Below are positions 1 to 11,111 of a stretch of 11,111 bases of DNA, piece after piece. Source of the DNA: a virus (taxonomy: Duplodnaviria > Heunggongvirae > Uroviricota > Caudoviricetes). The position numbers and the translations under genes were made by a program. The DNA lies in IMG/VR virus record IMGVR_UViG_2563366932_000013, one strand, 5' to 3'. How positions within the stretch are numbered: the stretch's first letter is position 1; each line of letters starts with the position of its first letter. Under the pieces are notes generated by a model. It ran no database searches, had not been told where the DNA came from, and saw nothing but the letters and a program-made list of their open reading frames with translations.

Positions 1-1158
1 ATGCTCACCGTTAAGCAGATTGAAGCAGCAAAGCCGAAAGAAAAACCATACCGCCTACTCGATGGTAATGGCCTGTACCTTTATGTCCCTGTATCAGGGA
101 AAAAGGTATGGCAGCTTCGCTACAAGATTGACGGTAAGGAGAAAATCCTGACCGTCGGAAAATATCCACTTATGACTTTGCAGGAGGCAAGAGATAAAGC
201 ATGGACCGCGAGGAAAGACATCTCGGTTGGCATCGATCCGGTAAAAGCGAAAAAGGCTTCGTCTAACAACAATTCCTTTAGTGCGATTTACAAGGAATGG
301 TACGAGCACAAGAAGCAAGTCTGGTCAGTAGGCTATGCAACTGAACTTGCAAAAATGTTTGATGACGACATTTTACCTATCATCGGCGGCCTTGAAATTC
401 AGGATATTGAGCCGATGCAACTGCTGGAAGTAATCCGCAGATTTGAAGATCGCGGTGCAATGGAGCGAGCCAACAAAGCCCGCAGAAGATGCGGCGAGGT
501 TTTCCGTTACGCTATTGTCACTGGTAGGGCTAAATATAACCCGGCACCTGACCTTGCTGACGCCATGAAGGGATACCGCAAGAAGAACTTCCCGTTTCTT
601 CCTGCAGACCAGATCCCTGCATTCAACAAAGCACTGGCAACATTTTCAGGAAGTATCGTATCGCTCATTGCGACCAAAGTTTTACGCTACACAGCCCTAA
701 GAACGAAAGAGCTTCGTTCCATGCTATGGAAGAACGTCGATTTTGAAAACAGGATTATCACCATCGACGCCAGTGTGATGAAGGGACGCAAAATTCATGT
801 GGTCCCGATGTCAGACCAGGTGGTTGAACTTCTCACTACGCTAAGCTCCATCACCAAACCAGTATCAGAGTTTGTTTTTGCCGGGCGCAACGATAAGAAG
901 AAGCCAATCTGCGAGAACGCGGTTCTACTTGTGATCAAACAAATCGGCTATGAGGGTCTAGAAAGCGGTCACGGATTCAGGCATGAATTCAGCACGATTA
1001 TGAACGAGCACGAATGGCCTGCTGACGCTATTGAAGTGCAACTGGCACATGCCAACGGCGGATCTGTGCGCGGTATTTACAACCATGCTCAGTATCTCGA
1101 TAAGCGCAGAGAAATGATGCAGTGGTGGGCGGATTGGCTTGATGAGAAGGTAGAGTGA
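1..1158 (+). CDS. int: Tyrosine integrase, P4-type (N-terminal arm-binding domain of the DUF4102 kind)
   Basis: 385-aa ORF from ATG at 1 to TGA at 1156-1158. N-terminus AKPKEKPYRLLDGNGLYLYVPVSGKKVWQLRY matches the P4-family integrase arm-binding signature as I recall it. C-terminal part has HGFRHEF and a tyrosine near the C-terminus (IYNHAQY), as expected for tyrosine recombinases. Confidence 0.9.
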   Translation: MLTVKQIEAAKPKEKPYRLLDGNGLYLYVPVSGKKVWQLRYKIDGKEKILTVGKYPLMTLQEARDKAWTARKDISVGIDPVKAKKASSNNNSFSAIYKEWYEHKKQVWSVGYATELAKMFDDDILPIIGGLEIQDIEPMQLLEVIRRFEDRGAMERANKARRRCGEVFRYAIVTGRAKYNPAPDLADAMKGYRKKNFPFLPADQIPAFNKALATFSGSIVSLIATKVLRYTALRTKELRSMLWKNVDFENRIITIDASVMKGRKIHVVPMSDQVVELLTTLSSITKPVSEFVFAGRNDKKKPICENAVLLVIKQIGYEGLESGHGFRHEFSTIMNEHEWPADAIEVQLAHANGGSVRGIYNHAQYLDKRREMMQWWADWLDEKVE

Positions 1159-1309
1159 TCCGCCTTAACAACTATCGAAGAGCACAAAGCCTTGTGTGTC
1201 TCATAGGCTATGAAACAATCATTTTACATGGTTACTTCACTACTTCCGCACAATATGATATCGTTCACAATCTAAAAACATTAATAATTTATCCATTACC
1301 GCGGTTAAT

Positions 1310-1336
1310 GCCCGTCGCTTCCAACGGGCTTTTTTG
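1310..1336 (+). terminator. Rho-independent terminator downstream of int
   Basis: Perfect 6-bp stem GCCCGT (1310-1315) / ACGGGC (1324-1329) with an 8-nt loop, followed by TTTTTT (1330-1335), about 150 nt after the int stop. Confidence 0.5.
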
Positions 1337-1397
1337 TAAATTATATTTTTATTACCTTATATTAATATTGGTAATATGTCTGCATGATGTTTTATAT

Positions 1398-2174
1398 TTA
1401 TTGCGTGAGCTTCGCATGATAGCTGGAGCATCTCTTGTCATCACTAATTAGCTCCGCTTTATCCGTTCTTGCCCATATTATATTTCTTTTTATTATTTTT
1501 GCTGGATTACCGGCTGCTGCACACATAGATGGCACATCTTTAGTTACAATACTCCCATACCCAATGACAGATCCGCTTCCAACAGATACTCCTTTCATTA
1601 TAGAGACATTTCTCCCTACCCATACGTAACTAGATATAATGATATCTTTTGCCCAATTAATCCTTTTTTTGCTATGAATATCAAATATAGGATGCCCATC
1701 TGATGCACGCAAAATAACATCTCTTGCTATCATGCAGTCATGGCCAATTGTAACATTGCACTTATCAGTGACGACTTCAAAACCTGCACCTATTGTCGTT
1801 CTTCTACCGATAATAACTTTTGAACCTTTTGTTGCGACAATATCACCTTTAATCTTACTGTTTTTATGTATTCTTACGTAATTATTATCACCCCTAAATA
1901 TTACGGTAAGCCATCGACACTCAACATCATCTTCTATAATAAGTTTGTTATTGTTTCCATTGAACTGAACTTTATTCTCTTTGCTATTTACAAGATCTCC
2001 ACATACAAAAACATTACCTGACCCATTATCATCAACGGAAAACGAGTCTTGAGTCTTGAGTCTTGAGTCTTGAGTCTTGAGTCTTGAGTCTTGAGTCTTG
2101 AGTCTTGAGTCTTGAGTCTTGAGTCTTGAGTCTTGAGTCTTGAGTCTTGAGTCTTGAGTCTTGAGTCTTAACAT
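1398..2174 (-). CDS. neuO: NeuO-like polysialic acid O-acetyltransferase (hexapeptide-repeat acyltransferase with N-terminal RLKTQDS heptad repeats)
   Basis: 258-aa ORF, ATG = complement of 2172-2174. C-terminal half (VWVGRNVSIMKGVSVGSGSVIGYGSIVTKDVPSMCAAAGNPAKIIK) is typical of left-handed beta-helix hexapeptide acyltransferases. N-terminus is ML followed by (RLKTQDS)x6 encoded by the AAGACTC tract, matching what I recall of K1 NeuO carried by prophage CUS-3. Putative SD AGGA about 5 nt upstream of the ATG. Confidence 0.85.
   Translation of the reverse strand: MLRLKTQDSRLKTQDSRLKTQDSRLKTQDSRLKTQDSRLKTQDSFSVDDNGSGNVFVCGDLVNSKENKVQFNGNNNKLIIEDDVECRWLTVIFRGDNNYVRIHKNSKIKGDIVATKGSKVIIGRRTTIGAGFEVVTDKCNVTIGHDCMIARDVILRASDGHPIFDIHSKKRINWAKDIIISSYVWVGRNVSIMKGVSVGSGSVIGYGSIVTKDVPSMCAAAGNPAKIIKRNIIWARTDKAELISDDKRCSSYHAKLTQ
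2044..2169 (-). repeat. Perfect tandem heptanucleotide repeat, (AAGACTC)x18 on the coding strand (GAGTCTT on +), inside the neuO 5-prime coding region
   Basis: Counted directly: 126 bp from 2044 to 2169 is 18 uninterrupted copies of GAGTCTT. 126 is divisible by 3, so the tract keeps the downstream acetyltransferase domain in frame with the ATG at 2174. Confidence 0.95.
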
Positions 2175-2190
2175 ATTAGTATCCTACGTT

Positions 2191-2219
2191 ATTTTACCAC
2201 TAGTTACTTTTCTTGTCAT
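2191..2219 (-). promoter_or_regulatory. Putative sigma70 promoter for neuO with extended -10
   Basis: On the minus strand: -35 ATGACA (complement of 2214-2219), 17-nt spacer, TGg-TAAAAT extended -10 (complement of 2191-2199), about 17 nt upstream of the neuO ATG. Hexamer matching only; no experimental support. Confidence 0.4.
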
Positions 2220-2327
2220 TAAAAAGCATTTAAATTTTTATATTTAATTTCGTTGACGTCAATGTTTTTTGCCAATGTACTTACTTCTTTATGTGATCAG
2301 TTCATATTTTTGACGCCAACGAAACAT

Positions 2328-5273
2328 TTAGTGCTTCCCTTCTATTAAGTCTAACCTAGCTTTTATTCTTTCTATTTCTCTGCGCTGCCATGCTGCCTCG
2401 ATATAGAATAAGAGATCAGGTCTGACCCCCCATCTAGATCCTGCTGGCGTTATTTCAACGCGCTCAATGATGTCTTCCATTACCATCACTGGATTATCAT
2501 CCTCATCAACAATGATGCTCCCGTCATTATCAGTCAGCGGCATTTCCCTTTGGCCAGTAATGACGTCATCATATACTGCGGGATAATCGTCATAGCAAAG
2601 AAAGGCATAGCGGCATGTTGTGCTTTCTTCTTCCATGAGTCCGTGAGAAATAAGAACATCACGAAGTTGCTGCGCGATTACACCATGATGTATCCTCGCC
2701 CCTTCTTCCCCCTTTATAGCGACAGCGTTCAGCCATTTATAAGCGATATACCTGACGTCACCCCAGGCATCCAGCAATGTTTCGTCAGGAGAGACCGGCT
2801 CTGTCTTTAATGTTCCGTCACTGGTAACCACAGGATTGGAGCCAAGATAAACTATCGAGAACCTGTTTCCCGGACCACCAAGAGCATTTACATTATCAAG
2901 ATAAGGTTTAACATCTCCGTTCTCAAAAAGATGTTCGAGTGCGTTATATACCGCGCGACGTGGAGTACTGCTTCTGGAACCATGCAACGTTATCATTGCA
3001 CCATCTGCTGAAGACGTTGTTTCACCGCCGCTAACGATTAATCTCTGAGCGGTAACATCATCAGACGGTACTTTCTTCGCAATAATGGCGTAATTACCCT
3101 CAAGTTTGACTTCCGCGCGAACTTGTCCTGATGTACCTGCATGGACAGTCAGTGACTGGACGGCAACATCATCTGTGAAATCAACGGGTACAGGAACCGT
3201 CCTCACGCCTGACGTCGACATAAAAGTAGGAAGCGTTCTGTTAGGAGTGGCTCCGTAGACAAAATCCCTTGAAACAAATTCTTCCTGTTTAATTTTCACC
3301 CTGAAACAATACAAATCAGCCGGGTGACCATCGTGAACATAAGGATATTTTCTGTTGTTATCCCCTATGCTCCATGGGTTTAGAAAGTCTTCCCCACCGA
3401 AAATGTAGTACAGCCAGTTGTCTTTGATACAAACTGAACCAACACCAACCGCAGAGTTAACTATTCCGCCCTGATAAATCTGATCAGTAACATTAACCCA
3501 CTCTACATTATCCAGACTCCACTCATTGACGTTAACTCTGGTCATAAATGTTCTTGGATAGTTTCCTGCATAACGGTTATCAGGTTCTCCTCCTTCCCAC
3601 TCACCAAATGCGCGCTCACTGCCAAAAATAATCAGCTCATCGCCAACTTTGGCAAAAGGAAGGTTTGAGTGATGAACATTATTTGGGAAGCGAAGAGAAT
3701 TCCATGATGTACCTAAATCAGAGCTTCTGTGCAATGAACTACCGGGTTGAGTACTTAATGTCCCCCTGGTCGTCAGATACAGAATGCCATCATAATATTT
3801 TACACATGGCTCAGATGCATTCGCCTCATATTCTGCAGGTATGCGTCTGCGAACAAAGCTACCAGGAGAACCGAAAGCATCAGAGAAATAGAGTATCCCA
3901 AGCTCGCGTGGACCAATATCACCATTATGGTAGCCAACAGCAAAACTGTTATCGCTAATCGTCGCAAAACTGTGAATCTCAGTAACAGGAGTGCTTCCGT
4001 CAACAAAAGAAGGAATAGTTCCAAGACTGGTTTTTCTCCATGGTGACGAGTGAAATGATGTACCAAAACTCCAGTATCTACCCTCGTTATTCTGATCCAC
4101 ATCCTGGGTATTTTGCGTCGTAACTGTAAAAGTATTTTTATCAATAACAGTAGTCACCGTCATATTCCCGGTAACACCTGTAACACCAGAGTTTGAGAAG
4201 TTGACAAAATCACCAGCAAATAATCCGTGATCAGTAATGCGAATATAAGCGACTTGCTGATTTGCTGCTTTCGTTATACCACCATAAACGCGAAGGCTGC
4301 GACTCATTGGGCGATCCCACAACTCTGCAACCTGCAGTTTATTTCCGCTCACGGTCCGCGTCTCAATTACAGCAAAAAGGCGATTTCTGACAACCCCCAT
4401 ACTCATGCAGTGATAGTTAACTGTGGGATAGTTTTCATGTAAATCTGTAAGCCATTCCGGCGTTGTCCAGGTCTTCCCGTCATCTCCTGAGCGAACCCAT
4501 GCAACATGGAGGTTATTTACACCATGGCGGTCTCCAGCCATAAAAGGCGCATAGATGACATTGTCATATACAAACGTTTTATCCTGCGTCCAGGCGTTGT
4601 ACCACGGTGTATCTGTAATTTTAAATAACTCTCCCTGGATAAAATCTTCAGAAACATAAAAAAGAGGCTGACCCGGTATTCTCTCAAATAAAAAACGAGC
4701 ATTTTTAAATCGACTGACATCTGGAAGAGTTGATACTTTAAAAGTAAGCCCTCGCCCATCTATCTTTTCACCACCTGTTGCAACAGAAAGTAATTCTGAT
4801 AGAGCTGATGTATCATCATGAACACCATCACCAATAGCCCCCCAACCTCTTACATCATAACTGTCTCTCCATCTTGCTATCTGAAGTTTTGGGTATTTAT
4901 TCGCTCCATCTGGGTCTTCTAATTGCTGCCGTAGTTGATCAGGATCATACTTCAGCACATTCTGGAAATAGAACTGCTGTACGCCATACGCATCGTACAC
5001 AGCCATAGAATGGCCTTGCACAGTTACGAACTTGGCAATCCGTCCGTTATATACAGGGTAACCAGCAGCGTTAATGATGATTGGTTGCGAAACAGGAACG
5101 TGAGAGCCGTCTTCGTTCTCTACATAAACCTGAATCCGGTTTTCAGGATTTACCGGGTCAGTGTCAATTTTACCGATATAAATTTTGCCATTGGCTACGG
5201 CTTTAAAAGAACGCGCCATAGTGAAGAGTTGCGAAGGCATCGATACAATCACATTGGCTGTAATGTCTGTCAT
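2328..5273 (-). CDS. Tailspike endosialidase (endo-N-acetylneuraminidase) with P22 gp9-like head-binding N-terminal domain and C-terminal intramolecular chaperone-like domain
   Basis: 981-aa ORF, ATG = complement of 5271-5273, SD GGAG 8 nt upstream. First ~115 aa ([43 protein letters not shown]...VLKYDPDQ) closely match the P22 tailspike head-binding domain as I remember it. Two sialidase Asp-box motifs ([16 protein letters not shown]). C-terminus (...[10 protein letters not shown]...[29 protein letters not shown]) resembles the autoproteolytic chaperone domain of endosialidase tailspikes. Confidence 0.85.
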
Positions 5274-5330
5274 TTAATTTGCTCCAGATGCAAAGAATCG
5301 CCGCAGCATGGCCACGGTGAATTTTGGGCA

Positions 5331-5354
5331 TAAAAAAACCCAGCCGAAGCTGGG
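5331..5354 (-). terminator. Rho-independent terminator (minus strand) between the upstream gene stub and the tailspike gene
   Basis: Read on the minus strand: stem CCCAGC/GCTGGG (5339-5344 and 5349-5354) with a 4-nt loop, followed by a 7-nt U tract (complement of A run 5332-5338). Confidence 0.5.
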
Positions 5355-5373
5355 TCGTTGCGTTGGTTATCTG

Positions 5374-5582
5374 TCAGTAATTATGTACTGAAGGAGGTAA
5401 TTCTTTATTCTTAAGTCTCATCCATGCGGAAAGATTCGTTGGTCCGTCTGGCTCATTGATATCAACATCTCGTGTGTGATTGATTAAAACGTCTCTCGCC
5501 ATATCGATAATACGGGAGAACTCATAACCGCAGTCATGACATCTGCCGGAATAGTTCGATTGAATTTGTTTTAGCGCCGGAT
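5374..5582 (-). pseudogene. 3-prime fragment (about 69 codons) of a gene whose 5-prime part was lost at the IS911 junction
   Basis: The six-frame ORF 5374..5631 runs into the IS: its first 16 codons are IS-end sequence, so only the C-terminal portion ([32 protein letters not shown]...SVHNY) is non-IS DNA. I do not recognise the family. Confidence 0.45.
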
Positions 5583-5654
5583 TGAAGTGGTTTACTGAAT
5601 TTGGCCACCTGAACAGAGGTGATATGCTCACCTCAGAACAACACAGGTGCCATA

Positions 5655-6802
<1,148 letters not shown>

Positions 6803-6832
6803 CTCGGTGGCCAGTTTTTGTTGACCACTTCA

Positions 6833-7003
6833 ATGCAACAGTTCGCTATTGCAGGGGCGGCATCGGTTCGCCCTTTCAACCCGATTTTATCGGTACAGCA
6901 TTCACGAAAAAACATTTTAACCGGAGCAGACTTTAAACAACCAAGAATGAAAAGCTTGCTCGAAAAGCTTTGGGATATTTTGAAACAACAAGGCCGTCCA
7001 TGA
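6833..7003 (+). CDS. cIII: cIII-like protein
   Basis: 56-aa ORF whose ATG (6833-6835) immediately follows the IS right end. N-terminus MQQFAIAG resembles lambda CIII MQYAIAG, and a central SLLE...DIL.Q.G.P stretch is similar. It sits first in an operon followed by erf, as in lambdoid/P22 pL operons. Confidence 0.5.
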   Translation: MQQFAIAGAASVRPFNPILSVQHSRKNILTGADFKQPRMKSLLEKLWDILKQQGRP

Positions 7004-7158
7004 GTTTTACGGATAACTGGTCAGACGAAGAATTCATTCGTCAGATAAAAGAATTAATCGGTAACGAAGGAGATATTCATGTCACTTGCAACCACAGTGA
7101 AGGAGAGCAAGTTACAGAGACGCATGTACACGCAGAAAGCTCTCTGGTATCGCCATAA
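7000..7158 (+). CDS. Small hypothetical protein (52 aa) at the position that kil occupies in the P22 pL operon
   Basis: ATG at 7000 overlaps the cIII-like stop (ATGA). Acidic small protein MSFTDNWSDEEFIRQIKELIGNEGDIHV... Positional inference only; the sequence is not recognised. Confidence 0.4.
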   Translation: MSFTDNWSDEEFIRQIKELIGNEGDIHVTCNHSEGEQVTETHVHAESSLVSP

Positions 7159-7259
7159 TGGTGACCGCGAAGGAATGCGGGTATGCCTTAATTTGTCCCG
7201 AGTCGAAGTATTAAATCAGCGTTATTTCCTTGGGCCGTGTCCATTCTGAGAGCAATCAT

Positions 7260-7865
7260 ATGAGCAAAGAATTTTACGCAAGACTGGCAGCTATTCAGGA
7301 GAATCTGAACGCGCCAAAGAATCAGTACAACTCATTCGGCAAATATAAATACAGAAGCTGCGAAGATATTCTTGAAGGCGTTAAGCCGTTACTGAACGGT
7401 CTGTTTTTATCAATCAGCGATGAAGTTGTGTTGATTGGTGATCGGTATTACGTGAAAGCCACGGCAACTATTACCGATGGCGAAAACAGTCATACGGCAA
7501 CCGCTCTTGCACGAGAGGAAGAAAGCAAGAAAGGAATGGATTCTGCACAAGTTACGGGAGCTACAAGCTCTTATGCACGCAAGTATTGCCTCAATGGTTT
7601 GTTCGGCATTGATGATGCGAAAGATGCAGATACAGACGAGCATAAACATCAGCAGAACGCAGCAGCAAAGCAATCAAAACCATCACTTACACCTGAACAG
7701 GTTCTAAAAGCATTCACTGACGCAGCAATGCAGAAAAACACCGTAGAAGAGCTTAAACAGGCGTTCGCCAAAGCGTGGAAGATGCTCGAAGGGACGCCGG
7801 AGCAGCACAAAGCGCAGGACGTTTACAACATCAGACGAGACGAATTAGAAGGGGCAACTGCTTAA
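7260..7865 (+). CDS. erf: Erf single-strand annealing protein (essential recombination function)
   Basis: From ATG at 7260 the protein begins MSKEFYARLAAIQENLNAPKNQYNSFGKYKYRSCEDILEGVKPLL..., matching P22 Erf as I remember it almost residue for residue in the N-terminal domain. Stop TAA at 7863-7865. Confidence 0.9.
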   Translation: MSKEFYARLAAIQENLNAPKNQYNSFGKYKYRSCEDILEGVKPLLNGLFLSISDEVVLIGDRYYVKATATITDGENSHTATALAREEESKKGMDSAQVTGATSSYARKYCLNGLFGIDDAKDADTDEHKHQQNAAAKQSKPSLTPEQVLKAFTDAAMQKNTVEELKQAFAKAWKMLEGTPEQHKAQDVYNIRRDELEGATA

Positions 7866-8248
7866 TGGCACATTCGATTACAGTAAGACTAAACAAACCC
7901 GCAAGAGAGTTTCAGGGCGGGGAAAATATCGGATTCAACATCCGTGCTGGCGTTCAGTATTACGATCGCCAGACAAAAAAGAAAGAATGGACAAACTACA
8001 GCGCCGTTGTATTTGCCAAGCCGGGAGCGCAAGCGGATTACTATCGTAGCGTTCTGGTTGAAGGAGGCATTGTAGAAATTACCGGAGAAAACATCAGGGT
8101 TGATGTTTATCAGGGGCAAAATGGTCAATCAATCACTCTTGAATTACTGAATGCAAAGATTGGATTTGCAACTTCAGGAAACAGCCAACAGCAGCAAAGT
8201 AGCAATCATCAAAATAATCCTGAATACGACGATTCCATCCCATTCTGA
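7865..8248 (+). CDS. Phage SSB-like OB-fold protein with acidic C-terminal tail
   Basis: 127-aa ORF, ATG overlapping the erf stop (TAATG). Ends ...QQQQSSNHQNNPEYDDSIPF, echoing the E. coli SSB C-terminal tip DDDIPF preceded by a Gln-rich linker. The N-terminal part has an OB-fold-like pattern (EWTNYSAVVFAKPG...VEITGE). Confidence 0.65.
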   Translation: MAHSITVRLNKPAREFQGGENIGFNIRAGVQYYDRQTKKKEWTNYSAVVFAKPGAQADYYRSVLVEGGIVEITGENIRVDVYQGQNGQSITLELLNAKIGFATSGNSQQQQSSNHQNNPEYDDSIPF

Positions 8249-8271
8249 TTTAGAAAAATAAGGATTTAATT

Positions 8272-8568
8272 ATGCCAGCGCCTTTGTATGGTGCGGATGA
8301 CCCGCGCCGCTGTTCCGGCAATTCCGTATCGGAGGTGCTGGATAAATTCAGAAAAAACTACGATCGAATAATGTCTCTACCGCAGGAAACGAAAGAGGAA
8401 AAGGAATTTCGCCACTGTATATGGCTTGCAGAGAAAGAAGAACGCGAGCGAATTTACCAGACATCAATCCGACCATTCCGCAAAGCCACATATACCCACT
8501 TCCCTGAATATATCGACCCGCGCCTGCGTAATTACCGCTCACGCTATGGCGCTATCAGTAATGACTGA
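8272..8568 (+). CDS. Hypothetical protein (98 aa), basic and helical
   Basis: ORF with SD AAGGA 8 nt upstream of ATG 8272. Its position after erf/ssb and its size are similar to where anti-RecBCD abc genes lie in P22, but I cannot confirm this by sequence. Confidence 0.5.
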   Translation: MPAPLYGADDPRRCSGNSVSEVLDKFRKNYDRIMSLPQETKEEKEFRHCIWLAEKEERERIYQTSIRPFRKATYTHFPEYIDPRLRNYRSRYGAISND

Positions 8569-8662
8569 GGAATTTACCATGAGAGGACTTGCTTAAGAGA
8601 AAGAGTTTCGGTTCTGTTAATGACAACAAATATCTGAATGCGATGTGGCGGAGTGGGAAGAA

Positions 8663-9181
8663 ATGAAACAAATGTCACTAATTGAGATGGATGGTTTTCT
8701 GAAAGGTAAATGCATCCCAAGTGATTTAAAGGTTAACGAAACAAACGCTGAATACCTTGTCCGTAAGTTCGGTGAACTTGAATCAAAACTGGAAACGGCG
8801 TTGCGGGAGTGTAGTTCTGCTGGAATCACGATTGATAACCTTGAGGCTAAATGCGCGAAGATGGCTGCTGAAAATACCTCACTTAAGCAATCTGAGAAGG
8901 AATTTAATGACTTTTGTCGTGAGGAGTTTAGCGAATGGGAAGATGATGTTACTGAAACCCCAGCCACCGATGCTTTTCTGGCTGAAGTGCGGGCGCAGGG
9001 GGTGGATGCTGCTATAGAAGCTGCAAAAAATCTGGTGGCCCAAGAATATGAGTATAAGGATTTCAAAGCGGCGCAGAGTGATTGCTGTATGCACCCTGGT
9101 TCAGACCTGGTAGGGAAGGTTGAAATGACTGAGTGGTTAGTTGACTTTGCTGCCCAGCTTCGCAAAGGAGGCAACCAGTGA
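8663..9181 (+). CDS. Hypothetical protein (~172 aa), acidic, predicted helical/coiled-coil
   Basis: Long ORF in the same orientation as the operon. Start taken as ATG 8663; the track starts at the GTG at 8645, which is also possible. Not recognised. Confidence 0.5.
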   Translation: MKQMSLIEMDGFLKGKCIPSDLKVNETNAEYLVRKFGELESKLETALRECSSAGITIDNLEAKCAKMAAENTSLKQSEKEFNDFCREEFSEWEDDVTETPATDAFLAEVRAQGVDAAIEAAKNLVAQEYEYKDFKAAQSDCCMHPGSDLVGKVEMTEWLVDFAAQLRKGGNQ

Positions 9182-9477
9182 CTGTATGTCTTATTGATAA
9201 ACGTCGACGTGGGCAACAAATACCATCTGTTGAAATGCCGAATCACACATGGTTTTGCGTACTTGATATCGATGGTATGGATTCGTTGGTTGACACTCGT
9301 CATTACTGCGATACCGCAACAGCTACTCCGGCGAAAGCAAAGAAAATGGCTGCTCTGATAGAAAACTGGACTCCACCTGATGGTTGGTGCAATGGGAATG
9401 ATCGAGATTGGCACGAAAAAATGAAGGGCTATATCTGCGATTTTTTACGTAAATGCAACGGCTTCAGGGGGATGTGA
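9178..9477 (+). CDS. Hypothetical Cys-rich protein (99 aa)
   Basis: GTG start at 9178 overlapping the previous stop (GTGA), with a strong SD AAAGGAGG 6 nt upstream. Six cysteines. Not recognised. Confidence 0.5.
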   Translation: MTVCLIDKRRRGQQIPSVEMPNHTWFCVLDIDGMDSLVDTRHYCDTATATPAKAKKMAALIENWTPPDGWCNGNDRDWHEKMKGYICDFLRKCNGFRGM

Positions 9478-9478
9478 T

Positions 9479-10051
9479 ATGACCAAAATTAACTATCAGG
9501 CACTGCGTGAGGCGGCAGAACGTGCAATTCCGGCAATGGAACGCCTGTTAATGTTGCCAGTTGATGATGATTTGTTAAGTGAACAGGAACTTAAGGATTA
9601 CGGTGTGGATATTGATGCGCTCAACGCCTTCAAATTTCTGACCGGACCAGAAACCGTGCTGGCGCTGCTGGATGAACGGGAAAGAAACCAGCAATACATC
9701 AAACGCCGCGACCAGGAGAACGAGGAAATTGCGCTAACGGTAGGGAAGCTGCGCGTTGAGCTGGAAGCTGCAGAGAAGCGCATTGCAGAACTGGAAGCCG
9801 AACCTGTAAGCCAAACTTACAAGTTGAACGAGCTGTCGGGCAACTATCCGGTAACTCCGGATGGTTGGATAAGCTGTAGTGAGCGAATGCCCGCTCAAGA
9901 TGATTGGATTTTAATTTATTCAAAGCACGGCGAGTATATGGCAGGACAGGTACAAGGGGAATACGTGGAGTTGAGCGACGGCACTTTATCGTGGTTAGGG
10001 AACGCCTTGTACTGGATGCCTCTACCGGAACCGCCGCAGGAGGTTAATTGA
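9479..10051 (+). CDS. Ead/Ea22-like protein with C-terminal DUF551-like domain
   Basis: ATG 9479 with SD AGGGGGA. N-terminus MTKINYQALREAAERA and C-terminal W...SERMPAQDDWILIY...WMPLPEPP pattern resemble prophage Ead/Ea22-family DUF551 proteins as I recall them. Confidence 0.6.
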   Translation: MTKINYQALREAAERAIPAMERLLMLPVDDDLLSEQELKDYGVDIDALNAFKFLTGPETVLALLDERERNQQYIKRRDQENEEIALTVGKLRVELEAAEKRIAELEAEPVSQTYKLNELSGNYPVTPDGWISCSERMPAQDDWILIYSKHGEYMAGQVQGEYVELSDGTLSWLGNALYWMPLPEPPQEVN

Positions 10052-10245
10052 TGGTCTCCTTCGCGAAATATACGATTATTGACTGGATAGCATTCATTCA
10101 GGTTTTGCTCATCTGGTTTTATATGGCTTACAGGAGTGGACAGTGGATTGTCAGTGTAGCCTGTAGCAATGGATGGCGTTGGTGGAACCGAAAGAATAAA
10201 AAAAGCGCTGGCCTTGGCTTCGTTTTACGAAGCATTCAATCTTAA
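10051..10245 (+). CDS. Small hydrophobic protein (64 aa), one predicted transmembrane helix
   Basis: ATG 10051 overlapping the upstream stop, SD GGAGG 7 nt upstream. Hydrophobic stretch IIDWIAFIQVLLIWFYMAY followed by a Trp/Arg-rich tail. Confidence 0.4.
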   Translation: MVSFAKYTIIDWIAFIQVLLIWFYMAYRSGQWIVSVACSNGWRWWNRKNKKSAGLGFVLRSIQS

Positions 10246-10328
10246 CAGTCTTCAGCCTGGTTCTGTCGTTGTAGTCACCACTCAAAGCGGCATGACGATA
10301 CAAATTCACAAGCCAAAGGAGGAAGGTC

Positions 10329-10613
10329 GTGGCTAACCTGCAACTTGCCGTTAAAGGTGAATACTTCGATGCCATGATTCGCGGAGAGAAAACGGAAGAG
10401 TATCGCCTGTGTAATGACTACTGGAATAAGCGAATTATGTTCCGCGAGTATGACCGCCTGATTATCACAAAGGGATATCCGAAGCGCGACGATTCCAGCC
10501 GCAGAATTGACGTCCCGTATGACGGATATGAAATCAAGACAATCACACATCCGCACTTCGGCGATAAACCGGTAAAGGTGTTCGCTATAAAGGTGAATAT
10601 CGACAATGAATGA
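10329..10613 (+). CDS. ASCH / DUF3850-like (PUA-like beta-barrel) protein
   Basis: GTG start 10329 with a strong SD AAAGGAGGAAGG upstream. LQLAVKGEYFDAMIRGEKTEEYR... resembles ASCH-domain prophage proteins from memory. Confidence 0.5.
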   Translation: MANLQLAVKGEYFDAMIRGEKTEEYRLCNDYWNKRIMFREYDRLIITKGYPKRDDSSRRIDVPYDGYEIKTITHPHFGDKPVKVFAIKVNIDNE

Positions 10614-10614
10614 T

Positions 10615-10670
10615 AATCCTCGCACTCGCGGGGATTTCTTTTATCTGAACTCGCTACGGCGGGTTTTGTT
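10615..10670 (+). terminator. Tandem hairpin / U-tract terminator-like region after the ASCH-like gene
   Basis: Hairpin AATCCTCGC-ACTC-GCGGGGATT (10615-10636) followed by TCTTTTAT. A second short hairpin CTCGC-TACG-GCGGG (10650-10663) is followed by TTTTGTTTT. Confidence 0.4.
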
Positions 10671-10685
10671 TTATGGAGATGATAA

Positions 10686-10853
10686 ATGCACTTCCGAGTC
10701 ACAGGTGAATGGAATGGAGAGCCATTCAACAGAGTTATCGAAGCAGAGAACATCAACGACTGCTATGACCACTGGATGCTGTGGGCGCAGATAGCACATG
10801 CAGACGTAACTAATATTCGAATTGAAGAACTGAAAGAACACCAAGCCGCCTGA
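10686..10853 (+). CDS. Small hypothetical protein (55 aa)
   Basis: Not in the ORF track (below its length cut-off). ATG 10686 with SD GGAGA 6 nt upstream; hand-translated as MHFRVTGEWNGEPFNRVIEAENINDCYDHWMLWAQIAHADVTNIRIEELKEHQAA, stop TGA 10851-10853, ending inside a terminator hairpin. Confidence 0.4.
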   Translation: MHFRVTGEWNGEPFNRVIEAENINDCYDHWMLWAQIAHADVTNIRIEELKEHQAA

Positions 10854-10866
10854 TGGCGGTTTTTTA
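10844..10866 (+). terminator. Rho-independent terminator
   Basis: Stem AGCCGCC / GGCGGTT (10844-10850 and 10855-10861) with loop TGAT, followed by a T run to 10865. Confidence 0.55.
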
Positions 10867-10910
10867 TTGCCTGATTTGCAGGTTCGATTCCCTATTCGGA
10901 GATAGCACTC

Positions 10911-11111
10911 ATGCAACACGAACTACAACCTGATTCACTGGTTGATTTGAAATTCATCATGGCCGATACTGGCTTCGGTAAAACCTTCATCTATGACCGG
11001 ATTAAGTCCGGCGACCTGCCAAAAGCCAAAGTTATCCACGGGCGAGCAAGATGGTTATATCGTGACCATTGTGAATTCAAAAATAAGCTCTTAAGCCGCG
11101 CCAATGGGTAA
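10911..11111 (+). CDS. AlpA-family helix-turn-helix regulator / excisionase-like protein
   Basis: 66-aa ORF, ATG 10911 with SD GGAGA. LVDLKFIMADTGFGKTFIYDRIKSGDLPKAKVIHGRARWLYRDHCEF fits the AlpA / phage excisionase HTH pattern (recognition helix with TIY, then a basic wing with W). Stop TAA is the last three bases of the window. Confidence 0.7.
   Translation: MQHELQPDSLVDLKFIMADTGFGKTFIYDRIKSGDLPKAKVIHGRARWLYRDHCEFKNKLLSRANG

Follow-up and report, generated by a model that had tools for sequence, protein, structure and literature searches.

The AAGACTC tract of neuO in an ISEc52-truncated CUS-3 prophage remnant: an 18-copy, in-frame allele

The window, meaning the whole 11,111-bp stretch of DNA that was analysed, contains the neuO gene with 18 copies of the heptanucleotide AAGACTC in its 5' coding region, and the allele is ON, a genotype call made from the consensus sequence. 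The tract is almost certainly the poly-psi VNTR of neuO from CUS-3, the P22-like prophage of Escherichia coli K1, and nothing contradicts its identification as the neuO poly-psi tract. The finding is accurate but already known: the switch and its rule of three, as well as the relation between length and activity, were published from 2005 to 2011 and surveyed again in 2026.

The switch was described by Deszo (2005, as cited in PMC3046976). The VNTR lies two nucleotides past the neuO start codon, copy numbers from 2 to 93 have been observed with gain or loss of a single unit as the most frequent event, and active NeuO is produced from multiples of three only, every three units encoding one RLKTQDS heptad (PMC3046976). 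In the mechanism taken from the literature, units would be gained and lost by slipped-strand mispairing at replication, and since the unit is 7 nt long the gain or loss of one shifts the reading frame. With a copy number divisible by three, and with no other, the ATG at 2174 reads into the catalytic domain; the remaining numbers end in a short peptide, and the window allele encodes NeuO carrying six RLKTQDS heptads at its N terminus. Published enzymology reports that the heptad domain is dispensable for activity, catalytic efficiency rising proportionally as it lengthens; given the frame rule, a single tract may thus act both as an on/off switch and as a graded control. Active NeuO would O-acetylate the K1 capsule, changing its antigenicity and conferring resistance to K1-specific phages. 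Both the ON/OFF phenotype and the activity-length relation at this locus are taken from the literature.

The heptanucleotide tract and its copy number

The tract and the gene that contains it are as follows.

2044..2169, minus strand: poly-psi tract, 18 perfect AAGACTC copies encoding (RLKTQDS)x6 (Tandem Repeats Finder, exact string test, translation)
1398..2174, minus strand: neuO coding sequence, 258 aa, polysialic acid O-acetyltransferase with a left-handed beta-helix, hexapeptide family (3JQY, Pfam)

Tandem Repeats Finder reported 2044..2169 as the sole tandem array of the window, with a period of 7, 18.0 copies of the unit GAGTCTT, 100% matches and 0% indels, and the 126 bp of the tract proved identical to 18 successive GAGTCTT units in an exact string test. 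The original prediction had counted 18 perfect copies over 126 bp at 2044-2169, and both recounts agree with it, 18 being confirmed as a number divisible by three. The minus strand of the window holds 18 AAGACTC units, all inside the tract, and reads ...AGGA TACTAAT ATG TT (AAGACTC)x18 GTTTTCC..., the coding-strand flanks (ATGTT upstream, GTTTTCC downstream) extending the repeat on neither side. In none of 200 mononucleotide-shuffled versions of the window did a perfect tandem run of any 7-mer exceed 2 copies (longest run 0 or 2), compared with the 18 observed. Instability driven by a hairpin was rejected, because the tract DNA showed no folding potential in excess of shuffles (z = -0.23 and +3.27); with no such potential, plain out-of-register slippage is enough as an explanation.

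A search for the neuO 5' region in 5,426 complete E. coli genomes gave 178 matches, 157 of them with at least 80% of the region. Among the matches listed, 91 records had fully aligned query ends; in 90 of them the difference in span from the window is exactly divisible by 7, and for these 90 genomes copy number was inferred from span length. The inferred values run from 3 to 60 copies (median 26.5) between flanks that are 99-100% identical, and 32 of the 90 listed genomes (36%) have a copy number divisible by three and are classed as ON. Selection for ON in sequenced genomes was rejected, as the three mod-3 classes (32/27/31) are not distinguishable from uniform (chi-square p = 0.79). An earlier survey of 64 complete genomes, with 3-53 repeats and 65.6% OFF (PMC13001214), is in line with the present sample. 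Copies were also counted directly in nine strains, and in the complete genomes checked the span-derived and direct counts agree in 8 of 8.

RS218: 19 copies (from the phage record, with no span-derived value)
APEC O18: 18 copies
PE144: 60 copies
MS7163: 21 copies (equal to the Sanger-verified published value, PMC13001214)
UTI89: 20 copies
SF-088: 47 copies
GN02050: 3 copies
CEA212U: 8 copies
19AR1321: 16 copies

Perfect tracts account for 17 of the 18 neuO tracts inspected directly, and the seven complete tracts in IMG/VR contigs, with 8-32 copies, are perfect without exception. The only imperfect neuO tract is that of E. coli UM146 (NC_017632.1), in which 10 units are followed by the 6-nt AACCTT and by 9 further units; as the near-identical UTI89 has 20 perfect units, the AACCTT of this older assembly is probably a sequencing error.

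It could be argued that the figure of 18 is itself a product of assembly, from a collapsed or mis-polished repeat, or of a mixed culture; the allele that truly predominates might then be OFF. Of 14 IMG/VR contigs in which the neuO start context is retained, seven terminate within the tract, so copy number taken from short-read assemblies can be unreliable; the corrupted unit in the complete genome of UM146 resembles a sequencing error, and fragment analysis of a single culture found 93%, 1.9% and 5.4% of cells with 21, 20 and 22 repeats, that is, about 7% of cells one unit off (PMC13001214). Such an origin of the window count is nevertheless improbable, since ordinary 150-250-bp reads can span a 126-bp tract, the 18-copy allele is found again, among the matches listed, in six complete genomes of three flank haplotypes and in phage phiv205-1, and span-derived counts are reproduced by direct ones, including the verified 21 copies of MS7163. 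The ON state of the 18-copy allele is a statement about the consensus genotype, in which minority lengths such as 17 or 19 copies are invisible.

One viral contig, IMGVR_UViG_3300007747_000060, has a 13-copy tract straight after ...AACGTAGGA, the 12 nt TACTAATATGTY that include the start codon being missing; this is either a start-codon deletion, giving a locked-OFF allele, or a misassembly.

The heptamer itself also occurs elsewhere. Genome contigs were scanned for exact (AAGACTC)x4, and the figures given here come from at least 120 matches listed. The possibility that other genes use the neuO repeat was rejected, as the matches listed, none from E. coli and none a neuO relative, are unrelated, mostly intergenic, degenerate heptamer arrays in other phyla. 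Among them, (AAGACTC)n runs were found in Planctomycetota, Acidobacteriota, Balneolaceae, a Methylococcales sponge symbiont and others, with 5 perfect copies at the median and 17 at most, and 97 of 120 runs lie inside degenerate arrays (AAGACTA, AGGACTC and similar). Also among the matches listed, some MAGs have such runs on 9-13 contigs, the arrays of Acidobacterium SZAS-13 stop, at 6 of 11 loci, 0-19 nt short of an ATG start, and those of the Methylococcales sponge symbiont are followed by a conserved CTTGATTTTTGRT motif.

Turnover within a truncated prophage

The prophage that carries the tract is recognised by the following features.

1..1158, plus strand: CUS-3 integrase, an IntS-type tyrosine recombinase (Pfam Phage_integrase 4.9e-39; CUS-3 annotation)
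2328..5273, minus strand: CUS-3 endosialidase tailspike siaK1, 981 aa, directly upstream of neuO (Pfam, CUS-3 annotation)
5583..6832: ISEc52 (IS3 family), inserted in the antirepressor gene ant
10876-10891: CUS-3 attR core
10911-11111: torI, an excisionase-like gene of a KplE1-type element

Positions 1300-2400 of the window are 99.4% identical in DNA to Enterobacteria phage CUS-3 (from E. coli RS218), whose record annotates the tract as 'poly(psi) domain; contains 19 copies of heptanucleotide repeat AAGACTC', and the tailspike at 2328..5273 contains the Pfam domains End_beta_propel (1.2e-233), End_tail_spike and P22 Head_binding. On a larger scale, window 1..5582 corresponds to CUS-3 192..5780 with 98.9% identity, and window 7000..10891 to CUS-3 36317..40207, up to the attR core. 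CUS-3 5781-36316, about 30.5 kb, is missing, and with it the genes for injection, head, terminase, lysis, Q, replication, cI/cro and N, only the C-terminal 85 aa of ant remaining. The window prophage is an ISEc52-truncated CUS-3 remnant, in which the neuO promoter region and coding sequence are undamaged and match intact prophages exactly, and the tailspike is intact as well. A 2-kb stretch over the junction, which falls in window 5374-6999, is covered to at least 80% in just 3 of 5,426 complete E. coli genomes. Considered as the source along with the other 18-copy genomes, APEC O18 was rejected, its ant being intact and its prophage full. The tRNA-Arg of the argW site lies just beyond the window and is present at the locus in both CEA212U and APEC O18; in CEA212U, dsdC, which encodes the reported regulator of neuO transcription, is found about 190 bp past the point at which the window ends.

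The closest public relative of the source of the window is CEA212U (NZ_CP166707.1; human biopsy, France), which over 11 kb differs by one SNP (G vs A at 7219) and by tract length, 8 copies against 18 in the window, and has the same IS junction. At 1 SNP per 11 kb, such a difference indicates that the tract alters far faster than point mutations accumulate. In 19AR1321, a related ISEc52-truncated remnant, the IS lies about 360 bp deeper into ant and the tract has 16 copies; together with the 8 copies of CEA212U this implies that the tract changed after the truncation. The original prediction had taken the perfection of the tract as a sign of ongoing slipped-strand turnover, and this claim is upheld by the range of 3-60 copies in the 90 listed genomes, by the pair of 8 and 18 copies in CEA212U and the window, and by the 17 perfect tracts of 18.

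These comparisons also bear on the idea of a relic tract, fixed within a defunct prophage and in frame by a one-in-three chance, with neither turnover nor expression. About 30.5 kb has indeed been lost, with all structural, lysis, replication and immunity genes, and the three frame classes are equally common across the listed genomes, so that the in-frame state alone is no evidence of selection. A relic is nonetheless very unlikely: CEA212U shares the identical deletion junction at one SNP in 11 kb and has 8 copies instead of 18, the related remnant in 19AR1321 has 16, and the window tract contains zero degenerate units next to an intact promoter-like site, Shine-Dalgarno sequence and coding sequence.

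It is conceivable, though in our view rather doubtful, that in this lineage neuO and its hypermutable tract have been kept by the host after the ISEc52-associated loss of about 30 kb and are now effectively chromosomal. On this reading the 10-unit gap between CEA212U and the window, at one SNP in 11 kb, could mean that multi-unit jumps play a larger part than is implied by the published account of changes by one unit in either direction. If this is true, such jumps would allow enzyme activity to be reset by large amounts, in addition to the flipping of phase.

As to the host, CEA212U has the K1 kps/neu cluster in full, the alpha-2,8-polysialyltransferase included (reference layout: UTI89), and its being a one-SNP relative makes a K1 host likely for the window. 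We infer that neuO is transcribed in the source strain and that this strain forms K1 capsule. An ON phenotype also needs DsdC-dependent transcription (PMC9659370) and the K1 capsule, and both the regulator and the capsule locus lie beyond the window.

Reading frame and product of neuO

The signals at the start of neuO and the stop codons of the two shifted frames are listed below.

2172..2174, minus strand: neuO ATG start codon, with the tract 2 nt after it (ATG TT, then AAGACTC...), a layout as in PMC3046976
2182..2185, minus strand: Shine-Dalgarno-like AGGA with a 7-nt spacer to the ATG, read from the sequence
2191..2219, minus strand: sigma-70-like promoter match ATGACA-17 nt-(TG)TAAAAT, 10/12, extended -10, by consensus match alone
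2026..2034, minus strand: TGA-TGA-TAA triple stop in the frame for copies mod 3 = 1, peptide end ...RLVFR* (simulation)
1988..1990, minus strand: TAA stop in the frame for copies mod 3 = 2, peptide end ...YVEIL* (simulation)

A single long ORF spans the tract, 1398..2174 on the minus strand, with an ATG start and 258 aa, and its translation is ML(RLKTQDS)x6 followed by FSVDDNGSGNVF... (begins FSVDDNGSG...). When copy numbers from 0 to 24 were simulated, the full-length product was obtained at multiples of three only, the other numbers (n mod 3 = 1 or 2) meeting a stop codon 4 or 17 codons beyond the repeats. Between neuO codon 1 and Met148 the frame contains no ATG, GTG or TTG, and the internal Met148 has no Shine-Dalgarno sequence; an internal start codon was accordingly rejected, and a functional enzyme must be translated through the repeats. 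The original prediction that the ATG at 2174 is in frame through (RLKTQDS)x6 and the gene ON is sustained, as 18 is divisible by three and the catalytic domain is that of crystallised NeuO; a start downstream of untranslated repeats, which had been named as one of the observations that would overturn it, is absent, there being no in-frame start before Met148 and an AGGA at the ATG.

That the repeats form an untranslated leader, with the enzyme starting downstream and copy number being no switch, would suit the finding that the heptads are not needed for catalysis and that heptad-free NeuO is active in vitro (PMC3046976), but this reading is, on the sequence, already refuted, since Met148, before which no in-frame ATG, GTG or TTG occurs, is without a Shine-Dalgarno sequence and would give a product missing about 100 beta-helix residues, AGGA stands at 7-nt spacing before ATG 2174, and a change from 38 to 39 copies moved O-acetylation from 3% to 44% (PMC8653822).

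PGAP annotates the full-length acyltransferase coding sequence in divisible-by-three genomes only. In OFF genomes it calls a 336-nt 'acyltransferase' fragment from the internal Met148, which is an annotation remnant; surveys of annotated proteins would consequently misjudge the length or status of neuO.

PDB 3JQY, polysialic acid O-acetyltransferase, matches the window protein with 100% identity over residues 17-258 (E 9.7e-161), the second-best structure match is meningococcal OatWY (PDB 2WLC, E 4.6e-31), and maltose and galactoside O-acetyltransferase structures are also among the matches. Pfam PF00132 Hexapep scores 41.2 bits against a cutoff of 27, and the hexapeptide repeat that defines the acyltransferase family, [LIV]-[GAED]-X2-[STAV]-X forming a beta-helix, is found in the window NeuO. 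The catalytic residues are present as His161 and Trp185, equivalent to His147 and Trp171 of the crystallised NeuO+12 (4 heptads) and shifted by two heptads.

With regard to the heptads themselves, the extension has been reported to be dispensable, NeuO without heptads being active in vitro; the poly-psi domain is disordered in the crystal, an earlier coiled-coil model has been excluded, and the authors suggested that the heptads, rich in Arg and Lys, enlarge the surface to which polysialic acid binds (PMC3046976). Catalytic efficiency climbs linearly with heptad number (Bergfeld 2007, as cited in PMC3046976), and the original suggestion that length tunes activity finds its support in this relation.

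Capsule O-acetylation alters Siglec recognition, resistance to neutrophils and to K1 phages, and serum sensitivity, and protection against K1 phage and neutrophils has been reported (PMC13001214). The strains concerned cause neonatal meningitis and urosepsis. An ON neuO allele with six heptads predicts the likely capsule form of the isolate, which is useful for typing and for phage or vaccine work.

Two further observations were made near the gene. The first is a perfect 10-bp palindrome, TTGACGTCAA, at window 2253-2262, which lies some 80 bp before the neuO ATG and may be the site of a regulator; another promoter-like match, less good than the first (TTGACG-17-AAAAAT), overlaps it. The second is a GTG ORF of 98 aa at window 1155-1451 on the plus strand, in all likelihood spurious, which has no Pfam match and overlaps the integrase stop, the neuO 3' end and a terminator-like hairpin (1310-1329, with a T-run after it).

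Comparison with known systems

The nearest known system is the CUS-3 neuO locus (Deszo 2005; King 2007; Bergfeld 2007; Schulz 2011, PMC3046976), with which the window shares the AAGACTC unit and its position, the RLKTQDS heptads, the catalytic domain and the integrase and endosialidase tailspike as neighbours. The alleles differ, with 18 copies here, 19 in the RS218 record and 12 in the crystallised variant, and the intact CUS-3 prophage is 40 kb long whereas that of the window is an ISEc52-truncated remnant. Among solved structures the closest homologue after NeuO is OatWY of N. meningitidis W-135/Y (PDB 2WLC), which has the beta-helix fold and the active-site logic in common (PMC3046976). 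OatWY differs in having neither the N-terminal heptad domain nor a repeat-based switch of the form seen in NeuO.

The window tract shows the hallmarks of a contingency locus, namely a 7-nt unit, a position in the 5' coding region and stops in both shifted frames, and it belongs to a group of neuO tracts of which 17 of 18 are perfect, as arrays homogenised by slippage are and decaying arrays are not. In Haemophilus influenzae and Neisseria meningitidis, simple-sequence-repeat contingency loci such as lic, mod, opa, siaD and similar genes contain tetranucleotide or homopolymer tracts. Like neuO, they combine a repeat unit not divisible by three in length, placed in the 5' coding region, with slippage and reversible translational ON/OFF switching, and the switched function modifies the surface. 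In contrast to them, neuO has a heptanucleotide unit, is phage-borne, and its translated repeats grade enzyme efficiency.

P22-like phages carry serotype-converting genes beside the tailspike, such as oac of Sf6 and gtrABC of P22. These resemble neuO in being cargo located by the tailspike or integrase, in modifying the polysaccharide that serves as the phage's receptor and in shielding the lysogen from related phages, although they act on the O-antigen and neuO on the capsule. The oac product is an integral-membrane acyltransferase-3 protein, whereas NeuO is a soluble beta-helix enzyme, and the phase variation of P22 gtr is achieved through Dam/OxyR epigenetic control, that of neuO through a coding repeat.
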